Both the position numbers and the translations under genes were made by a program. DNA of 64,000 nt from a virus (Duplodnaviria; Caudoviricetes): positions 192,001-256,000 of IMG/VR virus record IMGVR_UViG_3300042892_002922. One strand, 5' to 3'. The notes under the pieces are model-generated. The model saw nothing but the letters and a program-made list of their open reading frames with translations, was not told where the DNA came from and did no database searches. The stretch's first letter is position 1. Each line of letters starts with the position of its first letter. Below, one piece after another: positions 8,201 to 58,607 of this stretch.

Positions 8201-8453
8201 AACGAATGGTACTAGTTTTGGATATCATATATTCCCATCAGTTAACAATACCTATAACTTAGGTACATCAGCACTTAGATGGGCGAACGTTTATACGAAT
8301 GACTTACATTTAAGTAACGAAGGCAAAGAGGGTGGAAATGATATTGACGGAACAACAGGTAACTGGACAATTCAAGAAGGTGAAGAAAATCTGTATATTG
8401 TCAATAATAAGAATGGTAAGAAGTTCAAAATCAATTTAACCGAAATAGAATAA
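5259..8453 (+). CDS. Fibre protein 1 with two Gly-X-Ser collagen-like tracts and conserved phage fibre C-terminal domain
   Basis: Two (X-S-G)n tracts; C-terminus WANVYTNDLHLSN...GNWTIQEGEENLYIVNNKNGKKFKINLTEIE resembles the terminal domain of T4-like cyanophage fibre proteins. Confidence 0.7.
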   Translation: MANEFKIKNGLIVSGSAEIENNLIVHGTLTADLVNISLVSSSVLYESGSTKFGNTSDDFHEFTGSLSISGSLNINGTSYTSATSGTSGTSGTSGTSGSSGTAGSSGTSGTSGSSGTAGTSGSSGSSGTSGSSGSSGTSGSSGTSGSSGSSGTSGTSGSSGSSGSSGTSGTSGTSGTSGSSGSSGSSGTSGSSGSSGTSGSSGSSGTAGTSGTSGSSGSSGTSGSSGSSGTSGTSGTSGSSGSSGTSGSSGSSGTSGTSGTSGSSGSSGTSGSSGSSGTSGSSGTSGSSGSSGTSGSSGSSGTSGTSGTSGSSGSSGTSGSSGSSGTSGSSGSSGTSGTSGSSGSSGTVTMTGTQDNGILTLNGSSPNATVESNLRFDGSLLTVVGNETISGSLIVTNDFTVLGSSSILYVTSSQLRIADNIITVNTSNPGARFGGLEVFDSGSINNATGSILWDSVNNRWIYQNSSDAGYGGGMFLSGPRSSGSLGSELSLTSGKIAKSAGGDHLDDSNITDTGTLVSINSNTEITGTLRVTSNLFINGTSYTAATSGTSGTSGSSGTSGTSGSSGTAGSSGTSGSSGSSGTSGSSGSSGTSGSSGTSGSSGSSGTSGSNGSSGTSGTSGTSGSSGSSGTSGSSGSSGTSGTSGSSGSSGSSGTSGSSGSSGSSGTSGSSGSSGTSGSSGSSGTSGSSGSSGTSGSSGSSGSSGTSGSSGSSGTSGSSGSSGSSGSSGTSGSSGSSGTSGSSGSSGSSGSSGSSGSSGSSGSSGSSGTSGSSGSSGSSGSSGSSGSSGSSGSSGAATINSNVNDYVLTATGTAGLIQGESNLTFDGSTLSTSNVTATGTYNTNASSSRNKYNVYSTGASPYAIGMQSAITYGGLNDWGMTFQFNNDSGRGFWWGDEGHSTAQGAMALTTDGRLTVANNVRIGYGESDVTTPTLPLQVYGSGGTIVDIQGSSGQLFSVTDDLTGDIFSISDISGIPFINVNTTNGTSFGYHIFPSVNNTYNLGTSALRWANVYTNDLHLSNEGKEGGNDIDGTTGNWTIQEGEENLYIVNNKNGKKFKINLTEIE
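5505..6296 (+). repeat. (T/S)-S-G triplet tract, 88 triplets
   Basis: 792 nt, Gly every third residue, synonymous codons vary. Confidence 0.9.
6894..7640 (+). repeat. (T/S)-S-G triplet tract, 83 triplets
   Basis: 747 nt, Gly every third residue. Confidence 0.9.
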
Positions 8454-33590: not shown

Positions 33591-34025
33591 ATGATATACT
33601 GGTTAACAGGCCAACCCGGCGCAGGAAAAACAACCTTAGCAAAATACTTAGTGGAATACTTTCCGAAAGATGAGGTTACTCACATCGATGGGGATGACTT
33701 AAGGGACATCTTTAAAAACAAGGACTATTCCATAACAGGTAGAAGATTAAACATCCAAAGAGCACAATACATTGCACAATTTATGCATAGTAAGGGACAT
33801 AATGTTATTGTGTCCTTAGTTTCACCATATAGAGACCAAAGAGAAGAATTTAAATTTAGTACATCGGTTGTCGAGATTTATGTACATACCACAGAAGATA
33901 GAGGTAGAAACCAATTCCATGTTGAGGAATATGAACCACCATTAGAAAATTTTATAGACATAGATACAACAATAAAAAACGAAACAGATTCGTATTTTGA
34001 ACTATTAAAAAAATTATCATTATGA
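33591..34025 (+). CDS. cysC: Adenylyl-sulfate (APS) kinase (start refined from 33564)
   Basis: IYWLTGQPGAGKTT P-loop; IDGDDLR; VIVSLVSPY...R; VEIYV. Confidence 0.8.
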   Translation: MIYWLTGQPGAGKTTLAKYLVEYFPKDEVTHIDGDDLRDIFKNKDYSITGRRLNIQRAQYIAQFMHSKGHNVIVSLVSPYRDQREEFKFSTSVVEIYVHTTEDRGRNQFHVEEYEPPLENFIDIDTTIKNETDSYFELLKKLSL

Positions 34026-34537
34026 TGACAAATGGTATTATCATTGACAATTTTTTAGACAATGTTGATGAAATAAGAGAGGAAGCGTTGTTATTAGATT
34101 ATACTAAATCATTACCTGAAAGTGAAGGTTGGAAAGGGTTTAGGTGTTTAAATGGAAACATGTTGACACTTGATTTACATGAAAAGATTAAAGAAAAGTT
34201 AGTTGAAACTAATATAAAATTTGATAATTGTGATATGAGGTGTTTTTTTCATTATACATTGGAAGAACATAATGTAGGTAAAAAAAACACACATCGTGAT
34301 TATGGTTTTGATTATGCTGGGGTTTTATACCTAGCACCAAACCCACAAAAAAATTCAGGTACGTCTTTTTATAATGATTTAGGTGAAGAAACCGGTTACT
34401 TGGAAAACGTTTATAATAGATTAGTAATTTATCCAGCGAATGAGTTACACTCTTTAAAAGAATCTTTTGGTAACGATATTAATAATGGTAGATTAACTTT
34501 CACGTTTTTTTGTAAATTAAAAAATAACAATATATGA
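34022..34537 (+). CDS. 2OG-Fe(II) oxygenase-like protein
   Basis: IIIDNFLDN; HRD; GVLYL..P..NSGTSFY; YNRLVIYP...H; RLT. Confidence 0.7.
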   Translation: MMTNGIIIDNFLDNVDEIREEALLLDYTKSLPESEGWKGFRCLNGNMLTLDLHEKIKEKLVETNIKFDNCDMRCFFHYTLEEHNVGKKNTHRDYGFDYAGVLYLAPNPQKNSGTSFYNDLGEETGYLENVYNRLVIYPANELHSLKESFGNDINNGRLTFTFFCKLKNNNI

Positions 34538-34914
34538 GTAAGAAATATGCAATGTACATCGGTAGGTGGCAAAATTGGCATAAAGGTCACGAATGGTTGA
34601 TCCGTCAACAAATGGACCAAGGTAAGAACATATGGGTAGCTATTAGGGATGTTGAAGTTGACGAGAACAACCCTAAAACAGCTCAAGAGGTTTTTCAAAT
34701 GTTAATCCAGGAGCCCTTTTTTAACGAGAATTTTGATAAGATTTTACTATCAATTATCCCAGATATCGAATCGGTTAATTACGGTAGAGGTGTTGGTTAC
34801 GATGTAATTTATCATGAGCCACCGGCGGATGTTGCGGTAATAAGTGGAACTGCGATTAGAACTGGACATATGACCGCTGATGGTTCAATAAAATATGACC
34901 AAACAAAAGGATAA
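34534..34914 (+). CDS. HIGH-family (cytidylyltransferase-like) nucleotidyltransferase
   Basis: YIGRWQNWHKGH (HxGH); ISGTAIR C-terminal motif. Confidence 0.75.
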   Translation: MSKKYAMYIGRWQNWHKGHEWLIRQQMDQGKNIWVAIRDVEVDENNPKTAQEVFQMLIQEPFFNENFDKILLSIIPDIESVNYGRGVGYDVIYHEPPADVAVISGTAIRTGHMTADGSIKYDQTKG

Positions 34915-35129
34915 TGATTGTAGAACGTAAACGACATATTGCGAAAACAATATCCTATCGCATTATAAGCACTATAATAGGTTTCCTTATAATGTGGTGG
35001 GTTAGTGGATCAATTAAGATTGGCGCGACCTTTGGTGTGGCTGAATTGGTGTACAAACCTATTCAATATTACCTACACGAAAGGATTTGGTATAGATGGA
35101 TAAAGTTCGGGGTAAAAGATAAAAAATAA
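34914..35129 (+). CDS. DUF2061-like small membrane protein
   Basis: RHIAKTISYRIIST...YYLHERIW. Confidence 0.75.
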   Translation: MIVERKRHIAKTISYRIISTIIGFLIMWWVSGSIKIGATFGVAELVYKPIQYYLHERIWYRWIKFGVKDKK

Positions 35130-35153: not shown

Positions 35154-36641
35154 ATGAGAACAGTATTGATAGGATCAGATTTTATGTACGATAAGGATGG
35201 TAATTTAAGACCCATCGAAATAAACACTGCGGTTGGTTGGGATGGTCCCGAAAAAGTGGAAGACGATGCAGATTGTTTGGATTTAACAAGTTTATATCAA
35301 TTTGTTGAGGATAATAATTTCCAAACGATACATTATGTTGGTGATATTGGTCCATTACACGTGACATTAATGACACATTATAGCGGAAGTTCTGTTACAT
35401 ATGAATTTCATGGGGTTGGAGCTACTTCCATTACAGTTCCATACATAGAAGATACTGAAACGACTTTAATTATTAGGAGTGCATATGACACAACAGCACT
35501 AGTGGATGACACATATTGTAAGGATAAAATAGAGTTCATGAATCTAATTAAAGATTCTTCTTTTGGCTCCCAATTTGCGTACATTGACGAAAATAACACA
35601 TTGGTGTCAAATATCACATCTATAAATGATAACGGCGAACACCCTAATTTTATTTTAAAATCTAGATTTCCAGGTTATGACAAGTTAATTTATCCAAAAT
35701 TTTTTAAAGTTACAACTCAATCTGAATTAGACACTATAATAGCAAATAATGTTACAAGTGAGTATTTTTTAATGGAGTACCTATGTAACGTCAATAAACT
35801 ATGGGAAGGGCATTTAACGGTTATAAGAAGTTTAAACATTTTAGTCCCACCAAATTTAGAATCAATTCAAATTGGCCAATATACAAAATTGAATCAAAAT
35901 ATGTTACTAGATAATGTGACATATGATTCAATCACATTTGAAGTATATTCAGATTTCAAAGAGAGTTATAGTACAAACCCACCTACCGGTTTTCAACCTA
36001 AATTATTGAATACTGATATGGTAGAAATGGCAGATGGGACATTAAAAACTGCATTGGATTTACAAATTGGGGACGTTATTAAAACAATTGAAATACCAAA
36101 TGAAAAGGGAACTAGTATAGATAGTTACGTATCCTCCGAATTTGGGCTTACGTACGATACGTTGGTAAGTGATGCAATATATACAACTAATGTCGTAACC
36201 AAAAAACAAAAAGTAAACACCTTAACTTTTATAAATGAATTAACATTTGAAGATGCTAGTACCTGGGAAGATACTATGGGCTCAAAGTATTTGATAGACA
36301 GAGAAGGTGTGGTTATGTTTAAATCATTATGGGGGATATTTCCAGGAGATGTGGTTATATTATTAGATACTACTGATGATAATATAAATTTTGTAAGAAA
36401 AACAGTTACATCAAATATTCAAGTTAAGAGAGTGTTCTCTGGTTGGTTTATTTCAGTTGATACCGCTATGTTATTTTTAACTAAAACAGCCGGGTCAACC
36501 AATAACGAATCATATGTTTCAATTGAACATAACCTTATATCTTGTCCCAATTGGACATGTACAAACGTTTGCTGGTCCGTCTGTCCATCATGTCCGAAGT
36601 ATATGTCTTGTCAATCTAATTACTGTTTTCCAGTATGTTAA
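35154..36641 (+). CDS. Circularly permuted ATP-grasp-like domain + degenerate Hint domain + C-terminal 8-Cys peptide
   Basis: N-terminal SDFMYDKDGNLRPIEINT (D..ExN), FILKSR, YFLMEYL; residues 283-460 KLLNTDMVEMADG.LK...DLQIGD...YVSIEHN; tail LISCPNWTCTNVCWSVCPSCPKYMSCQSNYCFPVC. Confidence 0.6.
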   Translation: MRTVLIGSDFMYDKDGNLRPIEINTAVGWDGPEKVEDDADCLDLTSLYQFVEDNNFQTIHYVGDIGPLHVTLMTHYSGSSVTYEFHGVGATSITVPYIEDTETTLIIRSAYDTTALVDDTYCKDKIEFMNLIKDSSFGSQFAYIDENNTLVSNITSINDNGEHPNFILKSRFPGYDKLIYPKFFKVTTQSELDTIIANNVTSEYFLMEYLCNVNKLWEGHLTVIRSLNILVPPNLESIQIGQYTKLNQNMLLDNVTYDSITFEVYSDFKESYSTNPPTGFQPKLLNTDMVEMADGTLKTALDLQIGDVIKTIEIPNEKGTSIDSYVSSEFGLTYDTLVSDAIYTTNVVTKKQKVNTLTFINELTFEDASTWEDTMGSKYLIDREGVVMFKSLWGIFPGDVVILLDTTDDNINFVRKTVTSNIQVKRVFSGWFISVDTAMLFLTKTAGSTNNESYVSIEHNLISCPNWTCTNVCWSVCPSCPKYMSCQSNYCFPVC

Positions 36642-36670: not shown

Positions 36671-36760
36671 ATGGCAACAATTATATCAAATACAGACATC
36701 AATACTTTAAACACCACAATTACAACAATAGGTAGTTTAATTGTAACAGCAAACAGTTAG
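36671..36760 (+). CDS. 29-aa Thr/Ile/Asn-rich peptide, not in ORF track (MATIISNTDINTLNTTITTIGSLIVTANS)
   Basis: ATG after A-rich leader taaataaaaa, TAG at 36758-36760; fills a gap in an otherwise gap-free operon. Confidence 0.6.
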   Translation: MATIISNTDINTLNTTITTIGSLIVTANS

Positions 36761-36783
36761 TATAAAATCTAATAAGTTATTTT

Positions 36784-37317
36784 ATGATACATTTCATACC
36801 AAATATTCTTACTAAGGATGAGTGTGAATACTTAACGAATCAATTTGATTTCGAAAGAAAATATCAAATCTCGGTGGATAATGAATATACTGGCACCAAT
36901 ATATCATATGGGTTTGCCCCTTCATTTGCGTTTAATACCTATTTAAATAAATTAAAATCAAAAGTGTTAGAATATAACAATAATTTTGATGATTTATTCA
37001 ATGTAAACACATTTGTTAGGGAATATATGAACACCTCAATGTTAAAAAAACATTTAGATAGAAAAGACATTAGTGTTACTATGTCTATATGTTTAGAATC
37101 CACAATAAATAAAGAATGGCCGTTATGTGCGGAAATCGGAAATAAGGAATATTGTTTCAACACAAATATTGGTGACGGTATTTTATTATTTGATGCGGAT
37201 AAAATCACACATTGGAGGGAACCCTTAATATGTCTGGAGAAAGAAAGAGTTGTCCAATTTTTTTTACATTGGAAACCTTCTGATTACGTCGCAAAAAAAA
37301 CAAAATCATTATTATAA
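36784..37317 (+). CDS. 2OG-Fe(II) oxygenase-like; ends KKTKSLL
   Basis: LKKHLDR; ISVTMSI; GDGILLF...HWREP. Confidence 0.75.
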   Translation: MIHFIPNILTKDECEYLTNQFDFERKYQISVDNEYTGTNISYGFAPSFAFNTYLNKLKSKVLEYNNNFDDLFNVNTFVREYMNTSMLKKHLDRKDISVTMSICLESTINKEWPLCAEIGNKEYCFNTNIGDGILLFDADKITHWREPLICLEKERVVQFFLHWKPSDYVAKKTKSLL

Positions 37318-37328
37318 AAAAATAAATT

Positions 37329-37913
37329 ATGCCATTTACATATACAATAGAGTCAACCTTTTTAACAAAAGAAGAATGTGATTTAATATTAGATTTTTCA
37401 TTAAAAGAATTAAAATTAGTACCATCGGAAATTCTTACCAATTACACCGATGGTGGCGACGTTAATACCGATATTAGAAAATCAAATCAAGTATTTTACC
37501 CCTATTATAAAAAATTTCCATTTTTATTAGAAAAAATGAGTAAATTATTAAATCAACATATTTTTGTTAAAGGGTTCGATTTAGATTTTAAAGAAAGTCA
37601 ATTTCAGTTTACTGAGTATCATCCAGGCGGACATTTTGGCTGGCATAGAGATGCTCATGGAAAAAAAATAACGGATTATGACAGGTATTGTTCATTAGTG
37701 ATACAACTAAATGATGAGTATGGAGAGGGTGATTTACAAATAAAAGATGATCAGAATGGGACCCTAACAGTTGAAAAGGGTACAGGAAATTTGATATTAT
37801 TTTTATCAAATATTGAACATAGAGTAGTGCCAGTAAAAAGTGGGATTAGATATACACTAGTTAATTGGGTGAAATTAAAACAAAAAAAAGATTATAAAAA
37901 AACACTTTTATAG
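37329..37913 (+). CDS. 2OG-Fe(II) oxygenase (PKHD/prolyl-hydroxylase-like); ends YKKTLL
   Basis: QFTEYHPGGHFGWHRD; EGDLQI; HRVVPVKSGIRYTLVNW. Confidence 0.85.
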   Translation: MPFTYTIESTFLTKEECDLILDFSLKELKLVPSEILTNYTDGGDVNTDIRKSNQVFYPYYKKFPFLLEKMSKLLNQHIFVKGFDLDFKESQFQFTEYHPGGHFGWHRDAHGKKITDYDRYCSLVIQLNDEYGEGDLQIKDDQNGTLTVEKGTGNLILFLSNIEHRVVPVKSGIRYTLVNWVKLKQKKDYKKTLL

Positions 37914-37914
37914 T

Positions 37915-38232
37915 ATGAAAATAAATTTTAAAGAAATATTAAATGCGTGGTATAATGTTATAAATCACACACCAGAACAAAAGGAATTAGCAGATAAAAG
38001 ATTCGCAATATGTTTAGAATGCCCCTCTAAAATAGAAATTTTAAAATACAAGAAATGGCTTTTTAAATGTAAAGAATGTGGTTGCCCTTTAGGCGCAAAA
38101 GTTTACACTGAAACAACATATCTTACTAAAGACAAATCTTGTCCACTTGATAAATGGAAAGAAGTTGAAATGGAATTTATGAGTAAACATAGTGACACGA
38201 TTAAATATAAAACTAAAAAAACATTTCTTTAG
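37915..38232 (+). CDS. Small Cys-rich (putative metal-binding) protein; ends TKKTFL
   Basis: RFAICLECP; CKECGCPL.AK; CPLDKW. Confidence 0.6.
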   Translation: MKINFKEILNAWYNVINHTPEQKELADKRFAICLECPSKIEILKYKKWLFKCKECGCPLGAKVYTETTYLTKDKSCPLDKWKEVEMEFMSKHSDTIKYKTKKTFL

Positions 38233-38234
38233 TT

Positions 38235-38924
38235 ATGGGTTATTTAATAAACGATGACCTTTTATGGGTGATCACCCCTAAATGTGCTAGCGACTCAATA
38301 GAAACTGCATTATTAAACTCAAGTTTAAATTTAAAAAAATATAGCGAACACTTCGAACAACATACCCATATGCATATACCACTAAACGAGTGCTTAACTA
38401 AGTTTGGTAAAAAAGAAACAATATGTATCACTAGAGATTGGTTTGAAAAATGGTTAAGTTCATTAAATTTTATTTGGGATTATATAGAATTATATAGTGA
38501 ATATGAACCAGTATGTAAATGGGAGGACATCAATAATAATGTTATTTATGAGATATTTGATAGCGAATTTGTAAATAAACTTTACTCATTAAATCATACC
38601 TCTAATGAAGAATGTTTTTTGAAATTATTAAAAAGGAACACCGAAGATATTATAAACGTACCCAAAGAAATTTATGGAATAATAATAACTCTAATATCTG
38701 AACGCTATTGGAAAAGTAATGTAAAATGCACATATGAATTTGATATTAAAAAATTAGACGATTTTGTCAATTTCATTGAAAATAGGTTTGGTGAAAAATT
38801 AATAATAGAAAAGAAAAACGTATCTACAAAAAGACCAAATAAATTAATAGTAAATAATGAATTGAAATCTTTTGTTTGGGAAAAATTTGAAAAAATATTT
38901 GAAAAAAGAAATCAATTAATTTAA
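38235..38924 (+). CDS. Sulfotransferase-family protein; ends KRNQLI
   Basis: WVITPKCASDSI (5'-PSB-like); TRDWFEKWLSS (3'-PB-like). Confidence 0.65.
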   Translation: MGYLINDDLLWVITPKCASDSIETALLNSSLNLKKYSEHFEQHTHMHIPLNECLTKFGKKETICITRDWFEKWLSSLNFIWDYIELYSEYEPVCKWEDINNNVIYEIFDSEFVNKLYSLNHTSNEECFLKLLKRNTEDIINVPKEIYGIIITLISERYWKSNVKCTYEFDIKKLDDFVNFIENRFGEKLIIEKKNVSTKRPNKLIVNNELKSFVWEKFEKIFEKRNQLI

Positions 38925-38925
38925 T

Positions 38926-39594
38926 ATGGCAACTATTTGGACATTTGGGGATTCATTTACTTCTGGAGACGGGTGTGTAGAAAACCTAAGAATTAGAGAC
39001 GGTGATTTTAGATATTATAACGAATATAAAAAACTAGGCAGTGATATATGGCCTAATTTATTAGGTAAAACTTTAGGATATGACGTAAAAAATCTAGGAA
39101 AAAGCGGTGCAAGTAATGACTATATTTTAGATTCTATTATTGATAATTTTAACATGATAGAACCAAATGATGTGGTGATAATTGAAAAAACATTTTACCA
39201 AAGATTTGATATACCTAAATCAACGGGTGATGGGTTTCAAACAATTTATGCTGAAGGACTTTATCAACTTTCTATTGATTTAAAAATGGAAAGATATTTT
39301 TGTGAAGATAAATTAGAAATTGAAACGGTATTAAATTATGGTGTTTTATTTTCCGACAATAAATTATTTAAAGAAAGACAAGATAAACGATTTGAATTTA
39401 TACAAGCACAATTAAATAATAAAACAGATAAAATATTAATATGGGATGTTTTAGATTTTTTAGACGGTAAAATTGAAACAATAGGTCAACACACTGAGGG
39501 TAATATAAAAGATTATCATTTTAGTTTTAATGGTCATAAAAGATTTAGCGAATTTCTATATAAAAAATTATATATTAAACCCTCATTAGTTTAA
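38926..39594 (+). CDS. SGNH/GDSL-like protein; ends KPSLV
   Basis: TFGDSFT; NLGKSGASND; DYHFSFNGH. Confidence 0.7.
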   Translation: MATIWTFGDSFTSGDGCVENLRIRDGDFRYYNEYKKLGSDIWPNLLGKTLGYDVKNLGKSGASNDYILDSIIDNFNMIEPNDVVIIEKTFYQRFDIPKSTGDGFQTIYAEGLYQLSIDLKMERYFCEDKLEIETVLNYGVLFSDNKLFKERQDKRFEFIQAQLNNKTDKILIWDVLDFLDGKIETIGQHTEGNIKDYHFSFNGHKRFSEFLYKKLYIKPSLV

Positions 39595-40326
39595 ATGTTA
39601 GTCGATAAAAAATTTATTTTTATAAGTTTACCAAGATGCGCATCAACATCATTTATGATTAGGTGTGTTAAAAACAAAATACCAATAGAGCATTTCAACT
39701 CAAACCATGATAATCAGTTGATTAAAATCAATGAATGGGAAAAAATGGGTAATGAAGAATTGGCGGATAGATTAGTACATGCGCACGAACCATTACATAT
39801 GTTACAAGAAAAATTTGGGACGAACAACCAAATTATTTCAATAAAACGAAATAAGTACGATAGATTTTTATCTTTATGGAAACACATCATAGACGAATTA
39901 CACAGAATTAACAAACTTGATATTGCTGACATCTTTTCAAAATTAACAACTAATGATCTGTTTGTTAATATTAAACCAAATGACATTTATAATTCGGAAA
40001 ATAGAATTAAAGTTATTGATAATTTTTTATCTAGGTTAGAAATTTCAAAAGAAGAATCTTACACTAAAAATATGTTAGATATATTGTTTATGCCAGTAGT
40101 TGAACTTACAAATAACGACCCAAATATTATCTGGTTTGATATTAACAGTTTGAGAGATTTAGAAAATTGGGTGTCAAAAAAACTAAATAGAGATTTTAAA
40201 ATGGAAAAAATAAATTCAAGTAAACATTTTAATTCAGTAATGGAGAACGATGATAATTTTAAACAGAAATATGATAATCTTTATAAAGAATTTGACCAAA
40301 GAAAAACAACTAAAACATTATTGTAA
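39595..40326 (+). CDS. Sulfotransferase-family protein; ends TTKTLL
   Basis: FIFISLPRCASTSF; KRNKYDRFLSLW. Confidence 0.65.
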   Translation: MLVDKKFIFISLPRCASTSFMIRCVKNKIPIEHFNSNHDNQLIKINEWEKMGNEELADRLVHAHEPLHMLQEKFGTNNQIISIKRNKYDRFLSLWKHIIDELHRINKLDIADIFSKLTTNDLFVNIKPNDIYNSENRIKVIDNFLSRLEISKEESYTKNMLDILFMPVVELTNNDPNIIWFDINSLRDLENWVSKKLNRDFKMEKINSSKHFNSVMENDDNFKQKYDNLYKEFDQRKTTKTLL

Positions 40327-41495
40327 TGGAAATTCAATTTTGGTATAGCGATATTTTACCAAATACAAATATTAGAAATTCAATCGAAAAAATAGATAGT
40401 GACATCTTATTTAAAAATATCCACACCGATAAGGTAGATGTTACAAAATTAAATTTTTTATTTTTTTTGTTAGAAACTGAATGGACTAATTCCGATATCC
40501 CAAACATAGCGTATACTCATTCTAGTGAATTTATTGAATTACTAATTAAGTTACAATCTGAAAATTTCTATTTTATGTGTAATAATTCTGGGGAAGCCGA
40601 ACTTTGGGTGGATAATTTATCCTTGAATTTTTTTAATTTGTTAAAAAAAAATAAAATTGATTTTAACAGATTAATAATTGTAAATAACGATTCATCTAAA
40701 ATTGGTATAGGTAAAACAAAATATGGGGATTTTATATTAAACACCTGTTTTTTTCCTAATTTCTTTTTATCTACCTATGAGCATTTAAAGTCATATGTAA
40801 CTGAATTAAACCCTAACACCATACCTGATAAAAAATTCTTATGTTTAAATAGAAGAATGGGTTATGAAAAATATAAATTAATCGAGAGGTTATATCATAT
40901 GGGGTTGTTAAATGACACCAGATTTTCTTGGGTAAAAAATAGCACGAATAAAAATCTGTTAAATAAAGAATTACTTAATGAATTAAACATAGATGTTGAT
41001 AACTTTAACCCTATTCAGTTAGAAGATGATGTAATGTATGGTGCTGATTTAGTTATGGAAAAGTATCTTTACACCATAAACCCCAAATGGTATTATAAAA
41101 GTAAAGTTAATATTATATTGGAAACAATGCTATACCCAAATTCAATTCATCTGACAGAAAAAACCTGGAAAGCAATTTATTTAGGTGTCCCGTTTGTTAT
41201 ATATTCACCATCTAAACACTATCTTAAAACCTTAAGGGATATGGGATTCAAGACATTTAATTCTGTGATTAATGAGGATTATGATGAGATGCTAGGTAAA
41301 GATAAAATAACACAAGTTATAAAAAGCGCTGAAGAACTGGCTAGTATCTATGACACCCCCAAAGTATTAGATATATGTAGATTTAACCAAGAATTATATT
41401 TTAATTTTCAACACAGAAAAAAAATATATAATGAGTTTTTTTTAAATAAAATTTGTGATGTTAAAAACTTAACAATTCCTAAAACATTAATTTAA
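40326..41495 (+). CDS. FxxLNR/SEK family paralog 3; ends PKTLI
   Basis: FLCLNRR; LTEKTWKAI..GVPFV..LKTLRDMGFKTF..INEDYD. Confidence 0.45.
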   Translation: MEIQFWYSDILPNTNIRNSIEKIDSDILFKNIHTDKVDVTKLNFLFFLLETEWTNSDIPNIAYTHSSEFIELLIKLQSENFYFMCNNSGEAELWVDNLSLNFFNLLKKNKIDFNRLIIVNNDSSKIGIGKTKYGDFILNTCFFPNFFLSTYEHLKSYVTELNPNTIPDKKFLCLNRRMGYEKYKLIERLYHMGLLNDTRFSWVKNSTNKNLLNKELLNELNIDVDNFNPIQLEDDVMYGADLVMEKYLYTINPKWYYKSKVNIILETMLYPNSIHLTEKTWKAIYLGVPFVIYSPSKHYLKTLRDMGFKTFNSVINEDYDEMLGKDKITQVIKSAEELASIYDTPKVLDICRFNQELYFNFQHRKKIYNEFFLNKICDVKNLTIPKTLI

Positions 41496-42545
41496 ATGGG
41501 TAATAAAATTGATTTAAAAAATTATACGTGTAGTGTGCCATTTACATCATTAGAAATACATAACAATGTTTGTTTTGTGTGCTGTCCATCCTGGTTACCA
41601 AACAAAGTAGAACTTAGTGAAATTCCATTAAAAGATGTTTATAATAGCGAACCAATTATTGATATAAGAAACTCGATATTAGATGGTTCATTTAGATATT
41701 GTAGTCAAGAGCTTTGTCCTTATTTAAGTAAATTAGTGAAGTATGGTGCGGAATCTGGGCCAGTCACTTTAAAATCAAATTCAAATGTTAATAGCCCTAT
41801 TGTAAAAAATAACGCACCAGATTATTTGATGATGAATTTTGATAGAACATGTAACTACAAATGTCCATCATGTAGAGTTGATTTAATAGTTGAAAATAGT
41901 GAGGGTATAAAACGTGTAGAAAAAACAATAGAGGAGATTGATAATCACTACTCGAAATATGTTAAAACCCTATATATTACTGGATCAGGGGATCCGTTTG
42001 TTTCTGTCGGATTCAGAAATTATCTAAGAAATTTTAACCCTAAAAAATACCCAAACTTAAATTCCATACACCTACACACAAATGCGTCTATGTGGAATAA
42101 AGAAATGTGGGATAGTATGCCAAACATACACGGATATGTCCACTCTTGTGAAATTAGCATCGACGCTGGTACAAAAGACACCTATGAAAATAAAACCAGG
42201 TTGGGTGGTAAATGGGATAATTTAATTGATAATTTAAAATTCATAAGCACTCTACCAATTTCAGTTAAAACATCATTTGTGGTTCAAGATTCCAATTACA
42301 TGGAAATGGGTATTTTTTACAACTTAATGTACTCAATATTTGGTAAAAGAGTAAATGTGTTTTTTGGTAAGATAACTAATTGGGGGACATTTTCAGAAGG
42401 TGAATTTAAATTAAAACAAGTATGGGATACGGAACATCCAGAACATGAGTTATTTAAAAAAGAGTTTAATAAAGTATGGAAAAATGAAAACCTTTTTCAT
42501 AATTTATATGAGTTTATTGACAACACAAATAAAACTTTAATATAG
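41496..42545 (+). CDS. Radical SAM protein, paralog of 32437; ends NKTLI
   Basis: YTCSVPF..VCCPSW; CSQELCP; DRTCNYKCPSCR; ITGSGDPF. Confidence 0.85.
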   Translation: MGNKIDLKNYTCSVPFTSLEIHNNVCFVCCPSWLPNKVELSEIPLKDVYNSEPIIDIRNSILDGSFRYCSQELCPYLSKLVKYGAESGPVTLKSNSNVNSPIVKNNAPDYLMMNFDRTCNYKCPSCRVDLIVENSEGIKRVEKTIEEIDNHYSKYVKTLYITGSGDPFVSVGFRNYLRNFNPKKYPNLNSIHLHTNASMWNKEMWDSMPNIHGYVHSCEISIDAGTKDTYENKTRLGGKWDNLIDNLKFISTLPISVKTSFVVQDSNYMEMGIFYNLMYSIFGKRVNVFFGKITNWGTFSEGEFKLKQVWDTEHPEHELFKKEFNKVWKNENLFHNLYEFIDNTNKTLI

Positions 42546-43106
42546 ATGAGAATTTTAATACTATCACATACAAGATGTGGTTCTACCACATTATGTAAAT
42601 GGATATCAAAAGAATTGAATTTTGAAGTAGATTATGATCATTACGATGCTAACACATTTAATTCAATTTTCATTAAAAATAATATAATAAAAAAAATTGT
42701 TATCGAAGAATACAATCCACCAAATGAAGTTATTGAAAAATTTGATAAAGTTATTTGTTTAAGTAGGGAAAATAATATTGACAGTGCCATAAGTTTTATT
42801 AATGCTGATAACAAAAGCAGGTGGCACGACATATATGAAATAACAAATGAGTGGATTGAAGATAATAAAAATAAAATAATAGAAACTGTTTACAAATATG
42901 AACAATTAAAAACCTTATTAAAAAATAAAGATTTATTTCAAATAACGTATGAAAATATGTATATTAATAAAATAGACGTTAATAGAGTTATTAGTTATTT
43001 AAACATTGAAAACCCAAAACATTTGGATATGCTTGATTATGATAAAAAATATAGAAAAGACACATATACTTTAACACATGATTTTAAGAGAAAAAATATC
43101 ATTTAG
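42546..43106 (+). CDS. Sulfotransferase-like (Stf0-type) protein; ends RKNII
   Basis: ILILSHTRCGSTTL; LSRENNIDSAIS; ITYENM. Confidence 0.6.
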   Translation: MRILILSHTRCGSTTLCKWISKELNFEVDYDHYDANTFNSIFIKNNIIKKIVIEEYNPPNEVIEKFDKVICLSRENNIDSAISFINADNKSRWHDIYEITNEWIEDNKNKIIETVYKYEQLKTLLKNKDLFQITYENMYINKIDVNRVISYLNIENPKHLDMLDYDKKYRKDTYTLTHDFKRKNII

Positions 43107-43608
43107 TAAAGATGAGTGTGATTACATAATAAATTTATCCAAAGAGTTGGATGAACTTAAACCATTTGGTTATGATGACAATGTTAATAAAGAAAAAATA
43201 ACAATTAGATATTTTGTTTGGGTTATCAATAGAAACAATAAAACCCAATGGATATTTGATAAAATTCAAACGTATTTTATAAATAAAACTAATATAAAGA
43301 TAAAAAAAGAATTAGATAAAATATATATACACAAATATGACACCGGCCAACAATTTGAAAAACATGCTGACACATATTATAAAACACAAATACACAATGT
43401 AGGGGTATGTTTAAACAATGATTATGATGGAGGTGAATTTGTTTTATATAATCCAGAAGAACAATTACCAAAAGAAACGGGTAACATATATACTTTCCCT
43501 AGTCAAAGAATACATGAAGTAAAAAAAATAATAAAGGGTGAAAGGTGGAGCATTATTGGATTTTTACATATTGATAATTTAGATTTCCCTAAAAAATCAC
43601 TAATATGA
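43078..43608 (+). CDS. 2OG-Fe(II) oxygenase; ends KKSLI
   Basis: FEKHAD; LNNDYDGGEF; HEVKKIIKGERWSII. Confidence 0.85.
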   Translation: MILREKISFSKDECDYIINLSKELDELKPFGYDDNVNKEKITIRYFVWVINRNNKTQWIFDKIQTYFINKTNIKIKKELDKIYIHKYDTGQQFEKHADTYYKTQIHNVGVCLNNDYDGGEFVLYNPEEQLPKETGNIYTFPSQRIHEVKKIIKGERWSIIGFLHIDNLDFPKKSLI

Positions 43609-44162
43609 AAATTGGAATAACAGGACATTCTAACGGAATTGGAAATGACATTTATTCAAATTTAATAAAAGAATATGATGTTATAGGATTTAGTAGAAGT
43701 AATGGTTTTGATATTAAAAATACGGATAAAATTATAGAACAATTGGATGATTGTGATATTTTTATAAACAACGCTTACGAAGGAAACTATCAAACAATAT
43801 TATTTGAATTAATTTTTGATAAATGGAAATTTTTACCAAAAACAATTATTAATATGAATAGCAGTTGTGTGTATCATTCATCCGATTGGTCGCCAGAATA
43901 TGCAAATAATAAAAAAGAGTTAAAAGAAGTATCTTTAAATGCGATTAGAAATAATAAAAATAAAAAAGTTAGGGTCATAAATTTATATCCATCCACCTTA
44001 TCAACTCATATGGGGTTTGAAAGTTTAAATAAATTAGATACTGAAAATCTTGCAAAAATTATAAATTGGTTAATAAAACAACCACAAGAAATAGAAATTA
44101 GAGAGATGAGTATATATTGTACAACATTGGAGAAAGAATTTAAAACAAATAAATTAATATGA
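43605..44162 (+). CDS. Short SDR/Rossmann oxidoreductase; ends TNKLI
   Basis: IGITGHSNGIG; FINNAY; YANNK (YxxxK). Confidence 0.75.
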   Translation: MKIGITGHSNGIGNDIYSNLIKEYDVIGFSRSNGFDIKNTDKIIEQLDDCDIFINNAYEGNYQTILFELIFDKWKFLPKTIINMNSSCVYHSSDWSPEYANNKKELKEVSLNAIRNNKNKKVRVINLYPSTLSTHMGFESLNKLDTENLAKIINWLIKQPQEIEIREMSIYCTTLEKEFKTNKLI

Positions 44163-50512: not shown

Positions 50513-53500
50513 ATGAATATATTTGACGCACACATATCGGGATCATTATCCGTATCAAGTTCAGCCGAAATTTCGGGTGATTTAAAAGTTTTAGGAACAA
50601 TTAGTGGTTCCTTTAGTGGTGATGGCTCTAATATCACAAACATCCCAGCGGGTGGTGTTGTTGGACTTAATTTAACACGAATAGCTGACGGTGCATCAAC
50701 AGCATCAATTTCAAATACAGATGGTTTAAGAATTAATACAAATTCAGAAATTACTGGTTCATTAATTATAACCGGTGATTTAATTATAAGTGGAACATCT
50801 TTTAATGCCGCGACCTCAGGTACATCTGGTACATCAGGAACCTCAGGTACATCTGGAACCTCAGGGTCTTCAGGTTCAAGTGGAACATCAGGTACTAGTG
50901 GAACTAGCGGAACCTCAGGAAGTTCAGGATCAAGTGGAACATCGGGATCAAGTGGAAGTTCTGGTTCTAGCGGAACGTCAGGTACGAGTGGTTCTTCAGG
51001 TACATCTGGCACATCAGGAACCTCAGGTTCATCGGGAAGTTCGGGTACGTCTGGAACCAGCGGAAGTTCTGGGTCATCAGGTACAAGTGGAACATCTGGT
51101 TCATCCGGAAGTTCTGGTTCTAGTGGAACATCGGGATCAAGCGGTACCTCAGGCACTAGTGGAACCTCAGGATCAAATGGTAGTTCGGGCACGAGTGGTT
51201 CTTCGGGTTCATCTGGAAGTTCGGGTACGTCAGGTACTAGTGGAAGTAGCGGTTCTTCAGGAACATCTGGTTCTTCAGGAACATCAGGTTCAAGTGGTAG
51301 TTCTGGTACTAGTGGAAGTAGTGGTTCTTCAGGAACCGCTGGAACTTCAGGAACCTCAGGTTCTAGTGGTAGTTCTGGAACATCAGGTTCTAGTGGATCT
51401 AGCGGAACCGCTGGTACAAGTGGTACATCGGGATCTTCTGGTTCTAACGGGTCGTCAGGTACTTCAGGAACAAGCGGAACATCTGGTTCATCAGGAACTT
51501 CAGGTTCATCAGGTTCTAGTGGAACGAGCGGTAGTTCTGGTTCATCAGGAACATCAGGTTCTAACGGGTCGTCAGGTACTTCAGGAACAAGCGGAACATC
51601 TGGTTCATCAGGAACTTCAGGTTCATCAGGTTCTAGTGGAACATCTGGGTCTTCAGGGTCAAGCGGTACATCAGGTTCAAGCGGAAGTTCAGGAACATCC
51701 GGAAGTTCAGGGTCTAGTGGTACAGCGGGGACATCAGGAACCTCAGGTTCTAGTGGATCTAGTGGATCTAGCGGAACCGTAACAATGAGCGGAACACAAG
51801 ACAATGGTGTTCTAACACTTAATGGTTCCTCACCAAACGTAACTGCGGAAAATAATTTAAGATTTGATGGTTCACTTTTAACCGTTGTTGGTAACGAAAC
51901 AATATCTGGTTCCTTAATTGTGACAAACAATTTTACAGTATTAGGTTCATCCTCAATAACATACGTAACATCATCTCAATTAAGAGTTGAAGACAATATT
52001 ATCACAGTAAACACTGCTAGCCCTGGATCTAGATTTGGTGGACTAGAAGTTCATGATTCAGGATCGGTTGGTATTGCTACTGGTTCAATTCTTTGGGATT
52101 CTGTTAACAATAGATGGATTTATCAAAACTCAAGTGAGGCGGGTTATGGTGGCGGTGTATTATTGTCAGGTCCTAGAAGTTCTGGTTCACTAGGTAGTGA
52201 ATTAACATTAACTAGTGGTAGAGTTGCAAAGTCAGCGGGCGGAGACCACTTAAATGATTCAAATATAACAGACAACGGTACAACCGTTTCGATAAATTCA
52301 AATACAGAAATCACTGGTTCATTAATTGTTACTGGTGGTAATAAATTAGTTGTAAATGCTACTGGTGGTGATGAAGGTGGTGAAATTTTATTAGGGAAAG
52401 CGTTAACTAATACAACACTTGTTGGTGAGGGAGTTACAGTAGATATTTGGCAAAATAGATTAAGATTTTTTGAACAAGGTGGAACTGCGAGAGGTGCATA
52501 TATTGATATCTCAAGTTTAGCGGCAGGTGTTGGTACCAACCTGGTTGGTGCTGGTTCATCAGGTACTTCTGGAACTAGTGGTACCTCTGGCACATCGGGT
52601 TCTAGTGGAACATCAGGATCTAATGGTTCGTCTGGTACGTCAGGTTCATCAGGAACAAGTGGTACAAGTGGTAGTTCAGGATCTAATGGTTCATCTGGCA
52701 CGTCAGGGTCTTCAGGGTCTAGCGGAACATCGGGATCTAATGGTTCATCTGGCACGTCAGGAACATCGGGTTCTAATGGTTCTAGTGGAACATCAGGTTC
52801 TTCAGGTTCTAGTGGAACATCTGGTTCATCCGGAAGTTCTGGTTCAAGTGGGACCTCAGGTTCTTCAGGTAGTTCAGGTTCATCCGGAACAAGTGGAAGT
52901 TCGGGAACATCAGGTTCTAATGGTTCTAGTGGAACATCAGGTTCTTCAGGTAGTTCAGGGTCAAGCGGAACGTCTGGGTCTTCAGGTTCTAGTGGTACTT
53001 CGGGTACTTCAGGAAGCTCAGGAACAAGTGGGTCTTCAGGTTCTTCTGGATCTAGTGGAACATCGGGTTCTAACGGATCTAGTGGTACGTCGGGTTCATC
53101 AGGTTCTAGCGGTTCTAGTGGAACTTCAGGTTCTTCTGGTTCTAGCGGAAGTTCAGGAACAAGTGGATCTTCAGGGTCTAGTGGTTCAAGTGGAACCAGT
53201 GGTAGTTCGGGGAGTTCTGGTTCAAGTGGAACATCTGGGTCTTCAGGAAGTTCTGGTTCTAGCGGGTCTTCTGGTACGTCAGGTACTTCTTTTGCTAATA
53301 GTTTTAATATAAATCAAAATTTAGGAACAAGTAACTCACCAACATTTGGTGGTTTAACAATTACAGGTGGTGGTTCAGTTAGCACAGTATTAACAGGTGC
53401 TAACGTTGGTGACTTATTGTATGCATCAATTGCTGATAACGATTATTTCAGATTAAGAGTTGGTGGTACAGCAACAAATGCCGGTTATGTTGAAATAGCA

Positions 53501-54379
53501 ACTTCCGATGATGGTACCGAACCAATATATGTTAGACAATACACGGGTGTGTTTAGTAGTATAACTAGGACTGCAACATTACTAGATGGTAGTGGTAACA
53601 CATCATTTCCAGGTACAATTACAGCCCCAACATTCTCAGGAGCACTATCCGGAAACGCAACCACTGCAACCACTGCGGGCGCTTTAACATCAATGAACAT
53701 TTCACAGTTCACAAATAATAGTGCTTACATCACAGGTATATCTTTTGCAAACGTTTCATCAAAACCAACAACAATAAGTGGATATGGAATTACAGATGCA
53801 ATTACAACAGCTAACATTGGCTCTCAGTCCGTATCATTTGCAACAAGTGCTACAAGCGCAACTACTGCGGGTAGTGCACCAAACGCTAGTAATTTAAACG
53901 CATCTTATGGTGTATCAACGGGTAATGGAAACGGATTAAAATTTTGGGGAGGTTCCGACACGTATAAAATTCATATGGGTAGTTCATCTGAATATTATTA
54001 TGGCCCTGTTACAGATTACTCCATAAAGTGTAATATAGATAGTAATAGTTCGACAAGAGGTTTCACTTGGGGACAAAGTGGAGTAACACCAATTGCCGCG
54101 TTAAACGTAGGAAATGGAAATATGCAAATCGCAGGTACATTCACATCAGGTGGAAGTATATTACCATTAAGTAATGGTACGTTAAACTTAGGTTCATCTG
54201 GAGCAAGATGGAACACATTATTTACATCGGATTTATCGTTATCAAACGGTATTGGTGATTACACAATTGTTGAGGGTGAGGATGATTTGTTCTTATATAA
54301 TAATAAAAGAAATAAAGTATATAAATTTATGTTGCAAGAAGTAAAACCAGAAGATGCAACACCAAAGCGACCAGAATAA
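50513..54379 (+). CDS. Fibre protein 2 with two Gly-X-Ser collagen-like tracts (paralog of 5259)
   Basis: Two (X-S-G)n tracts; shared 181-aa inter-repeat module; C-terminus WNTLFTSDLSLSN..GDYTIVEGEDDLFLYNNK. Confidence 0.7.
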   Translation: MNIFDAHISGSLSVSSSAEISGDLKVLGTISGSFSGDGSNITNIPAGGVVGLNLTRIADGASTASISNTDGLRINTNSEITGSLIITGDLIISGTSFNAATSGTSGTSGTSGTSGTSGSSGSSGTSGTSGTSGTSGSSGSSGTSGSSGSSGSSGTSGTSGSSGTSGTSGTSGSSGSSGTSGTSGSSGSSGTSGTSGSSGSSGSSGTSGSSGTSGTSGTSGSNGSSGTSGSSGSSGSSGTSGTSGSSGSSGTSGSSGTSGSSGSSGTSGSSGSSGTAGTSGTSGSSGSSGTSGSSGSSGTAGTSGTSGSSGSNGSSGTSGTSGTSGSSGTSGSSGSSGTSGSSGSSGTSGSNGSSGTSGTSGTSGSSGTSGSSGSSGTSGSSGSSGTSGSSGSSGTSGSSGSSGTAGTSGTSGSSGSSGSSGTVTMSGTQDNGVLTLNGSSPNVTAENNLRFDGSLLTVVGNETISGSLIVTNNFTVLGSSSITYVTSSQLRVEDNIITVNTASPGSRFGGLEVHDSGSVGIATGSILWDSVNNRWIYQNSSEAGYGGGVLLSGPRSSGSLGSELTLTSGRVAKSAGGDHLNDSNITDNGTTVSINSNTEITGSLIVTGGNKLVVNATGGDEGGEILLGKALTNTTLVGEGVTVDIWQNRLRFFEQGGTARGAYIDISSLAAGVGTNLVGAGSSGTSGTSGTSGTSGSSGTSGSNGSSGTSGSSGTSGTSGSSGSNGSSGTSGSSGSSGTSGSNGSSGTSGTSGSNGSSGTSGSSGSSGTSGSSGSSGSSGTSGSSGSSGSSGTSGSSGTSGSNGSSGTSGSSGSSGSSGTSGSSGSSGTSGTSGSSGTSGSSGSSGSSGTSGSNGSSGTSGSSGSSGSSGTSGSSGSSGSSGTSGSSGSSGSSGTSGSSGSSGSSGTSGSSGSSGSSGSSGTSGTSFANSFNINQNLGTSNSPTFGGLTITGGGSVSTVLTGANVGDLLYASIADNDYFRLRVGGTATNAGYVEIATSDDGTEPIYVRQYTGVFSSITRTATLLDGSGNTSFPGTITAPTFSGALSGNATTATTAGALTSMNISQFTNNSAYITGISFANVSSKPTTISGYGITDAITTANIGSQSVSFATSATSATTAGSAPNASNLNASYGVSTGNGNGLKFWGGSDTYKIHMGSSSEYYYGPVTDYSIKCNIDSNSSTRGFTWGQSGVTPIAALNVGNGNMQIAGTFTSGGSILPLSNGTLNLGSSGARWNTLFTSDLSLSNGIGDYTIVEGEDDLFLYNNKRNKVYKFMLQEVKPEDATPKRPE
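50813..51775 (+). repeat. (T/S)-S-G triplet tract, 107 triplets
   Basis: 963 nt, Gly every third residue. Confidence 0.9.
52556..53284 (+). repeat. (T/S)-S/N-G triplet tract, 81 triplets
   Basis: 729 nt, Gly every third residue, several SNG triplets. Confidence 0.9.
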
Positions 54380-57698: not shown

Positions 57699-58088
57699 AT
57701 GGCACATTTTGCACAAATAGATTCTAACAACGTAGTTGTTGATATTTTAGTTGTTCCCGATGAACAACAACATAGAGGAAATGATTATTTATCCAGTGAT
57801 TTACAATTAGGTGGAACATGGATTCAAACATCATATAATGGTAATATAAGAAAAATGTATGCCGGAATTGGGTATTGGTATTTACCTGAATTAGACATTT
57901 TTTTACCACCCAAACCATTTGAATCGTGGTCTTTAGATACAGTTAATCAAATTTGGAAAGCACCAATTGAATGCCCTGAACAAGAAGAAGGTAAAGTTCA
58001 TATTTGGGACGAAGAACCCCAACAATGGAGAACCGAAATTTTACCAATTGCAGATGTTAATAATTTACCAGAACAAGCATTACCTTAA
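57699..58088 (+). CDS. Small partner of glycine-rich virion protein
   Basis: MAHFAQID..WIQTSYNGNIRKMYAGIGY..F.PPKPFESW.L..W.AP..P, a pattern typically found next to phage Gly-rich domain genes. Confidence 0.6.
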   Translation: MAHFAQIDSNNVVVDILVVPDEQQHRGNDYLSSDLQLGGTWIQTSYNGNIRKMYAGIGYWYLPELDIFLPPKPFESWSLDTVNQIWKAPIECPEQEEGKVHIWDEEPQQWRTEILPIADVNNLPEQALP

Positions 58089-58101
58089 TTAGAAATTTAA
58101 A

Positions 58102-58263
58102 ATGGGAGAAGTAACAAACATAGAAATTTATTTAGAAAACCAATGTTGGTACGTAAAATACTTACAAGATGGTGAAACAATTATAAGTAATCCATTTATG
58201 GAAGAACAACACGCAATTAATTATTGTGCTAGGTACTTACATCAAACAAATATAGATACATAA
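58102..58263 (+). CDS. 53-aa hypothetical protein, not in ORF track
   Basis: ATG 58102 to TAA 58263, MGEVTNIEIYLENQCWYVKY... Confidence 0.45.
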   Translation: MGEVTNIEIYLENQCWYVKYLQDGETIISNPFMEEQHAINYCARYLHQTNIDT

Positions 58264-58340
58264 AATCTCGTACCACTTGTTAATTTAAAACTTTACATTT
58301 AATAGAAAAATATTTACATTTATTATCAAGTTTATATAAA

Positions 58341-58607
58341 ATGAAACAAGAAACTAAAGGTAAATTTATTAAATCAGAAAAAACTTTGGTAGTTCTAGAA
58401 ACTATCGGTGTAATAATGAGAATTATGGCATTCGGTATGTTATCCATATTAAACAAGGATACACCGTTTTTATTGATGTGGATATGGAATACTATCGATG
58501 CGTTAATATTAACTTATTGTGCCTGGGAAAGAAGCAACACACCATATATCATACTTAACATATTCTGGTTAATAGTTGGTGCTGTTGGGATTTATAACAG
58601 TATTTAA
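58341..58607 (+). CDS. Small membrane protein (about 3 hydrophobic segments)
   Basis: Hydrophobic helices ending YIILNIFWLIVGAVGIY; stop overlaps the convergent stop at 58604. Confidence 0.55.
   Translation: MKQETKGKFIKSEKTLVVLETIGVIMRIMAFGMLSILNKDTPFLLMWIWNTIDALILTYCAWERSNTPYIILNIFWLIVGAVGIYNSI

Follow-up and report, generated by a model that had tools for sequence, protein, structure and literature searches.

Gene content of the locus

The window, by which we mean the whole stretch of 64,000 nt that was analyzed (positions 192,001 to 256,000 of IMG/VR record IMGVR_UViG_3300042892_002922, Caudoviricetes), contains a co-directional island of modification-enzyme genes (Table 1), among them radical SAM, 2OG oxygenase, carbamoyltransferase, epimerase, and glycosyltransferase-like types. 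Both flanks of the island (5259–8453 and 50513–54379) match tail-fibre PHROGs. Within the island, four overlapping or abutting genes on the plus strand fill positions 33591–35129. They encode an APS-kinase-like protein, a DUF6445/2OG protein, a 126-amino acid HxGH protein, and a DUF2061 protein. We use the name mini-HIGH for the family of the HxGH protein.

Table 1. Position and assignment of the features of the window that are discussed here.
Feature	Position	Strand	Basis or remark
Modification-enzyme island, ~36 kb, co-directional	14398–50467	+	Sits between tail-fibre genes
Lid-less APS-kinase-like P-loop kinase (CysC-like), 144 aa	33591–34025	+	PF01583, 63.2 bits
DUF6445 / 2OG-Fe(II) oxygenase-like protein, 171 aa	34022–34537	+	PF20043, 38.2 bits
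Mini-HIGH/HxGH nucleotidyltransferase (126 aa); may be a third type of ATP sulfurylase, modeled as a strand-swapped homodimer	34534–34914	+	
DUF2061 small membrane-type protein, 71 aa	34914–35129	+	PF09834, 57.8 bits
Sulfotransferase-fold protein 1, 229 aa (Sulfotransfer_2-like family; possible consumer of PAPS)	38235–38924	+	
Sulfotransferase-fold protein 2, 243 aa	39595–40326	+	PHROG and family profile matches
Sulfotransferase-fold protein 3 (Sulfotransfer_3/Stf0/NodH-like), 186 aa	42546–43106	+	Family Pfam matches

A preliminary description of this DNA had named the APS kinase, the HxGH protein, and DUF2061, together with three sulfotransferase-like genes 3–8 kb downstream, and had noted the lack of CysD/CysN and of a full-length Sat. 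This gene inventory holds: the first three genes share the plus strand, the PF01583 and PF09834 cut-offs are passed, and the sulfotransferase-like genes start at 38235, 39595, and 42546, that is, 3.1–7.4 kb away. CysD, CysN, and Sat were found neither in the window (tblastn and HMM search) nor in 80 related viral loci (tblastn). The description had passed over the DUF6445/2OG gene (34022–34537), which separates the kinase gene from the mini-HIGH gene. It is a local insert outside the conserved module; in most viral loci, the kinase gene directly abuts the mini-HIGH gene, and in some another 2OG gene lies between the two.

A protein identical to the mini-HIGH of the window is present on contigs of up to 287 kb, and the Atlas clusters of this protein are 96–100% viral among members with assigned taxa. 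A promoter scan of the window returned 28 sites versus 26.7 expected, and no terminators or tRNA genes were found. At ∼58000–58600, GC skew and gene direction switch, and a second glycan-modification cluster starts on the minus strand.

The region downstream of the four genes has features of its own. Positions 35154–36641 encode a 495-amino acid protein without a family match, in which one segment looks Hint-like by eye and the C terminus is a Cys-rich peptide with ∼8 cysteines in 30 residues. Homologues occur in 42 of 80 related loci, and the protein is possibly a RiPP-like or self-processing precursor, as judged from its sequence. An uncalled, Thr/Ile-rich ORF of ∼29 codons (36672–36761) lies between this gene and a run of eleven main consecutive genes (36784–44162), whose products end in a similar basic-hydrophobic tag (KTLL, KTLI, KSLI, or KSLL-like). 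In other phages, 33 of 49 and 21 of 51 members of the two sulfotransferase-like families carry the tag, whereas it is absent from all APS kinases, mini-HIGH proteins, and DUF2061 proteins.

The kinase and the sulfotransferase-fold proteins

The kinase of the window scores well above the PF01583 cut-off of 21.1 bits, but reaches only 60.2 bits with the apsK equivalog (cut-off 138.7) and stays below all NCBIfam cut-offs. It carries a deletion of ∼20–25 residues in the lid, so that its substrate may have shifted. It does retain the residues that align with the conserved Arg/Asn positions of canonical APS kinases. The same pattern is seen in the viral homologues, all 56 of which show the P-loop, DGDxxR, RxxNI, and SP(Y) motifs and none of which shows the FTG lid motif. 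Among the cellular kinase partners of mini-HIGH, the lid motif (GLY...FTG) is kept in 32 of 71.

The three downstream proteins are very divergent in sequence, and none has a Pfam sulfotransferase match when searched singly. They are covered by two families whose members match Sulfotransfer_1/2/3 and Stf0. Proteins 1 and 2 belong to one family by HMM, and the profile of this family matches heparan sulfate 2-O-sulfotransferase (E = 7e-4). Protein 2 itself matches the PHROG galactose-3-O-sulfotransferase (E = 4.8e-5), and one family member matches PF03567 (E = 1.1e-5). In the family of protein 3, PF13469 is matched by 6 of 34 members (best E = 2.5e-7) and PF00685 by 5 of 34, next to weak matches to the NodH and CurM sulfotransferases. 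With conserved columns that resemble the 5′-PSB and 3′-PB motifs, Pfam matches in some relatives, and a best PDB match at E = 7e-4, the three proteins are candidates for a sulfotransferase fold. Sulfotransferase-like genes occur in 38 of 40 long viral loci (at least 15 kb).

Sequence and fold of mini-HIGH

The mini-HIGH protein of the window has the catalytic motif HKGH at residues 16–19 and, searched alone, no Pfam match. Its best NCBIfam model is an NMNAT (31.5 bits versus a cut-off of 127), and another NMNAT-type model scores 24.2 versus 181.2. The family is large, with 5,420 clusters near this length and 795 representatives with E-values of at most 1e-10. Across 132 diverse members, Gly-10, Arg-11, His-16, Gly-18, His-19, Arg-38, Pro-47, Asp-77, Gly-84, Arg-85, Val-87, Gly-88, Tyr-89, Ser-104, Thr-106, and Arg-109 are near-invariant (His-16, 98%; His-19, 100%; Ser-104, 98%; Thr-106, 92%; Arg-109, 99%).

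Among solved structures, NadM-type NMN adenylyltransferases come closest (profile match to 1f9a at E = 6e-16), and mini-HIGH shares with NadM/NMNAT the GRxQPxHxGH and SxTxIR motifs and the Rossmann-like HIGH fold. We compared the AlphaFold model (pLDDT 93.3) with known folds. NMNAT (Z = 9.4, rmsd 2.6, 111 aligned residues) and PPAT (Z = 9.3) rank ahead of the Sat structure 1v47 (Z = 7.7, rmsd 3.1, 114 aligned residues).

The preliminary description had argued for APS synthesis on the ground that Sat belongs to the HIGH superfamily. This reason is weak, as mini-HIGH is NadM/NMNAT-like and not a reduced Sat. HxxH and SGTxxR of Sat are present, but SGTxxR also occurs in NMNAT and hence is not diagnostic. 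PF01747 (Sat) does not match the window protein and matches 4 of 24 relatives weakly (best E = 1.8e-4). At the place of the Sat QxRN motif, mini-HIGH has G-R-W/F/Y-Q-P with the arginine out of register, and none of the elements that bind sulfate in Sat (the Gln and the Arg of QxRN, the loop GxxKxxD, and the His-Ala that follows GRD) is matched in register. Gly-84 (98%) and Arg-85 (97%) are kept in the 132 sequences, whereas the aspartate of GRD is found in 17% and His-Ala is absent; hhalign leaves this loop unaligned. Comparing profiles with the catalytic domains of Sat yields a probability of 19%, and QxRN and GxxKxxD are missing, so that mini-HIGH is not a Sat by membership. We also considered a truncated Sat and rejected it on the same hhalign value and on the higher-scoring NMNAT and PPAT folds.

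Mini-HIGH is no normal NMNAT either, as judged from its sequence: the NMN-binding segment is gone, and the scores lie far below the cut-offs. Strands β3 and β4 are linked by 8 residues (profile positions 80–87) versus 33 in 1f9a (residues 77–109, Methanocaldococcus). The link is so short that β4 is unable to pair beside β1 of its own chain. The deleted segment includes the helix that holds the nicotinamide-stacking tryptophan of NMNAT.

When two copies are modeled, residues 78–83 of one chain pair with residues 5–8 and 90–94 of the other. This homodimer model scores 0.85 versus 0.00 for the best control, its contacts agree to at least 97% between runs, and pLDDT is at least 87; of 30 proteins solved as pairs, 20 attain the mark for this score, as does 1 of 23 solved as single chains. 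The prediction supports a strand-swapped dimer in which each subunit would receive the Gly-84–Arg-85 loop from its partner, and in the model this loop appears to occupy the position of the GRD loop of Sat.

Five proteins (P0129, P0169, P0198, P0236, and P0254) carry mini-HIGH domains behind endonuclease-like, Cys-rich N-terminal domains (PF02945 in P0129). These fusions are perhaps homing endonucleases that target the mini-HIGH gene.

Gene neighborhoods and fusions

Among the 80 viral loci, DUF2061 is found in 77 and APS kinase in 56, always at most three genes away, indicating that the linkage is non-random. Of 80 cellular loci, 70 contain APS kinase. The two domains are also joined in single chains: 60 of 76 homologues of at least 200 amino acids carry an APS kinase domain, either first (47) or last (13), and one such fusion clears the curated apsK cut-off (182.5 versus 138.7). 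Marine Flavobacteriales have cysC, mini-HIGH, CysQ, and several sulfotransferase genes in one run, and operons of the order cysC-miniHIGH-cysQ-sulfotransferases are seen at L153, L156, L157, and L159. At another cellular locus (L111), a mini-HIGH fusion directly adjoins cysDN.

Cultured phages with a mini-HIGH domain are Xylella phage Bacata, Xanthomonas phages Seregon and AhaSv, and Stenotrophomonas phage DLP_6. In the three that were examined (Bacata, Seregon, and DLP_6), the domain is part of a kinase/mini-HIGH fusion (phrog_10255, “kinase”). A weak Sulfotransfer_4 match lies two genes upstream of the fusion in Bacata. In the 55-kb Salvovirus phages Bacata (L206:7142–8318) and Seregon (L208), the fusion directly follows COG3236 (NADAR-type) and weak Sulfotransfer_4 genes.

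In ∼19 viral loci, mini-HIGH and DUF2061 follow a UV endonuclease gene and have no kinase nearby, many of them with sulfotransferases upstream. No distant kinase was found on five contigs with such a mini-HIGH (15–73% complete). In this second phage context, mini-HIGH and DUF2061 lie after a UV-endonuclease-like and before a peptide-deformylase-like gene (L020, L023, L024, L027, L047, L048, L066, L069–L076, and L078), with no APS kinase in the fetched DNA.

Apparent displacement of CysDN and Sat in cellular genomes

We followed the sulfurylase genes in a sample of 121 genomes of marine Bacteroidetes (G049 family, Flavobacteriaceae-like by gene content). APS kinase occurs in 61 of them. All 59 without mini-HIGH have CysD, in 50 cases directly behind cysC, whereas the two with mini-HIGH carry it behind cysC and lack CysD. 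Among 50 carrier genomes, which are incomplete, Sat is found in 1, CysD in 8, and neither in 41; kinship inflates these counts as well as those for the G049 family and for DUF2061, and the Fisher values for the latter two are not independent tests. In a largely overlapping set, NadD is found in 42 of 47 and CoaD in 38 of 47 carriers. The absence of Sat and CysD is therefore not explained by genome incompleteness, and mini-HIGH is no stand-in for NadD or CoaD. A phylum-wide sample of Marinisomatota contained only 3 carriers.

DUF2061, for which the window protein clears the PF09834 cut-off of 23.1 bits, follows CysD in the G049 family sample, being present in 94 of 97 CysD-positive and 0 of 24 CysD-negative genomes. 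The bacterial gene lies just upstream of cysH-cysD or cysC-cysD, and in this sample and at L210–L215 single-domain copies precede cysH-cysD and tandem two-domain copies precede cysC-cysD. DUF2061 is thus a candidate accessory or uptake protein of sulfate activation. As it tracks CysD, the phage cysC-miniHIGH-DUF2061 set corresponds to the DUF2061-cysC-cysDN cassette of bacteria, with mini-HIGH in the place of cysDN.

A second case comes from the APS reductase loci of Nitrospirales. These 30 loci read sir-cysH-cysD-cysN (14), sir-cysH-ybiB-cysD (9), or sir-cysH-miniHIGH-ybiB (5), and 2 end before the slot. The cysH product of the mini-HIGH loci clears the APS reductase cut-off, and CysD is absent from the five carrier genomes. 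Thus, mini-HIGH is partnered by a kinase elsewhere and by APS reductase here. To our knowledge, APS is the only metabolite that these two enzymes have in common, which points to APS synthesis. The five carriers probably form one clade, and we count them as one event.

A separate Sat-APSK fusion, however, is present in all five Nitrospirales carriers versus 3 of the other 56 genomes, so that Sat could be the real substitute for CysD. We therefore rejected Nitrospirales as a clean absence of other sulfurylases. The case is partly restored by decay of the motifs QxRN and GRDH, which bind APS in Sat (PMC3779200, PMC6607087). Both are altered in three carriers, QxRN alone in a fourth, and neither in the fifth; one of the three doubly altered copies also lacks the first histidine. 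The kinase halves are 84–90% identical. Judged from these sequences, Sat-APSK is probably turning into a kinase-only protein in Nitrospiraceae, with graded decay of the Sat half and a conserved kinase half between sister genomes (L193–L196 and L202; G005–G008 and G180).

Proposed function of mini-HIGH

The proposal of the preliminary description that the small HIGH protein makes APS gains strong support from comparative genomics. Mini-HIGH is fused to canonical APS kinases, stands in the place of cysDN in two lineages that are unrelated to each other, rarely co-occurs with Sat or CysD, and travels with DUF2061, which marks sulfate activation. On the strength of these sequence comparisons, we consider it likely that mini-HIGH has ATP sulfurylase activity and feeds PAPS to phage sulfotransferases. 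There is also a fairly good chance that it represents a third, independently evolved ATP sulfurylase class. These NadM-derived enzymes of 110–130 residues would act as strand-swapped dimers, would stand in for CysDN/Sat in assimilatory sulfate reduction as well as in PAPS supply, would make phages autonomous in sulfation, and would occur widely among large phages of aquatic habitats and among streamlined marine bacteria and archaea.

In the proposed mechanism, the mini-HIGH dimer would convert ATP and sulfate to APS and PPi, as its genomic context suggests. The scaffold probably derives from a NadM/NMNAT-like enzyme, and the alignment shows a deletion of the nicotinamide-binding segment. ATP would be held by the observed HxGH and SxTxxR motifs that are common to all HIGH enzymes. 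Strand β4 with the near-invariant Gly-84–Arg-85-x-Val-Gly-Tyr loop is predicted to come from the second subunit, and this loop may bind ribose and sulfate together with the family-specific Arg-38. The lid-less kinase would then phosphorylate APS to PAPS and so pull the unfavorable first step, with DUF2061 as a putative accessory of sulfate activation. PAPS may in turn be consumed by the three sulfotransferase-fold proteins, whose acceptor would be a product of the phage, probably one of the glycans or proteins made by the island. Against this reading stand the closest sequences and folds, which are those of NMNAT/PPAT rather than Sat, the lack of the Sat sulfate ligands, the 9 of 50 carriers that also hold CysD or Sat, the Sat-APSK gene of the Nitrospirales carriers, the ∼19 viral loci with no nearby kinase, the missing lid of the phage kinase, and the G049 family contrast, which rests on 2 carriers.

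It is unlikely that mini-HIGH handles APS without making it, as an APS-binding accessory or regulator or by removing APS (reverse reaction or hydrolysis), with host CysDN or Sat as the source. Such a role would fit those 9 cellular genomes, the cysDN genes adjoining the fusion at L111, and the Sat-APSK of all five Nitrospirales carriers, and host APS is open to a phage. However, 41 of 50 carriers have no other source of APS, the catalytic residues His-16, His-19, Ser-104, Thr-106, and Arg-109 are 92–100% conserved, and mini-HIGH substitutes for cysD in operons instead of joining it.

The lid-less kinase raises another alternative. Cytidine diphosphoramidate kinase is an APS-kinase homologue. 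The Campylobacter MeOPN pathway in which it acts (cited in PMC6429109) offers a precedent for activation of a non-sulfate anion, e.g. phosphoramidate or phosphonate, by mini-HIGH and the kinase, with 3′-phosphorylation to a PAPS-like donor for the sulfotransferase-fold enzymes. The missing lid, the scores below all NCBIfam cut-offs, and the divergence of the sulfotransferase-like proteins in the window would agree with it. Nevertheless, we regard this as quite improbable, because homologues of 40–55% identity occur in fusions with canonical APS kinases and in sir-cysH operons, the kinase retains the canonical Arg/Asn residues, and DUF2061 marks sulfate activation.

Automatic annotation suggests a small NMN/NaMN or phosphopantetheine adenylyltransferase for NAD or CoA salvage, in line with the top profile, PDB, and fold matches, some database names, and the NADAR-type gene that precedes the fusion in phage Bacata. 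We hold this to be very unlikely in view of the scores far below cut-offs, the 8 residues in place of the 33 of NMNAT, the NadD and CoaD that carriers keep, and the lack of any recurrent NAD or CoA gene among the identified neighbors. It is extremely improbable that mini-HIGH serves the glycan genes around it as a cytidylyltransferase for sugar or polyol phosphates: although CTP_transf_like matches 18 of 24 family members weakly and many carriers lie in polysaccharide clusters, cytidylyltransferases rank below NMNAT/PPAT in the fold comparison. In addition, APS kinase is the sole constant neighbor; in Nitrospirales its place is taken by APS reductase, and there mini-HIGH has no flanking glycan genes.

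If ATP sulfurylase activity of mini-HIGH is confirmed, a third ATP sulfurylase, one third the size of Sat, has been missed by annotation (as hypothetical protein, NMNAT, or PPAT). It would close the gap of “APS kinase without sulfurylase” in many genomes, as in the 41 carriers here. Reconstructed metabolism would have to be revised for marine Marinisomatota, Flavobacteriales, Poseidoniia, and Nitrospiraceae, and the cysC “AMG” that is common in phages would become one of two halves of a system that supplies PAPS for the sulfation of phage products.

Comparison with known systems

The APS-forming reaction and the phage cysC gene are already known. Among 7,334 freshwater phage genomes, 62 cysC genes were reported and read as assimilatory sulfate reduction, with no mention of a sulfurylase or sulfotransferase partner (PMC10914622). 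The kinase gene described here is of the same type and from the same kind of large phage, but its context points to sulfation; Sat was not found in the long related phage contigs tested, nor were PF01507 (cysH/cysD) members in five of them. A literature search, with most subscription papers outside its reach, returned no paper describing the mini-HIGH family.

By sequence and fold, mini-HIGH is closest to NadM (TIGR01527, PRK01153; PDB codes 1f9a, 1ej2, and 2qjo), with which it shares GRxQPxHxGH, NP, and SxTxIR. Unlike NadM, it lacks ∼25 residues between β3 and β4, has its own invariant Arg-38 and GRxVGY, and is linked to sulfate genes and not to NAD genes. The APSK-HIGH and HIGH-APSK fusions resemble bifunctional PAPS synthases (human PAPSS, Aquifex-type Sat-CysC, and CysN/CysC), but they comprise 245–330 residues versus 550–630, their sulfurylase half is NadM-like, and in the phage of the window the two halves are separate genes.

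Two types of ATP sulfurylase have been described, Sat and CysDN (PMC3779200), and sat is found in one of seven SAR11 strains (PMC3448164). With Sat (PF01747, EC 2.7.7.4; PDB codes 1v47, 1g8h, and 4dnx), mini-HIGH shares the HIGH-superfamily fold, the motifs HxxH and SGTxxR, a Gly-Arg that is predicted to follow core strand four, the operon partners, and, as we infer, the reaction. It differs from Sat as a single domain of 126 residues versus three domains and ∼390 residues, without the N-terminal PUA-like and C-terminal domains, without QxRN, GxxKxxD, and GRDHAG, and in its predicted strand-swapped dimer. Like CysDN (TIGR02039/TIGR02034), it fills the cysD(N) slot behind cysH or cysC in two lineages. 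The fold of CysDN (PP-loop and GTPase), however, is unrelated, tblastn of the window and 80 viral loci gave no similarity match to CysD/CysN, and mini-HIGH has no GTP coupling subunit. Mini-HIGH thus probably works like Sat or CysDN, yet belongs to neither.
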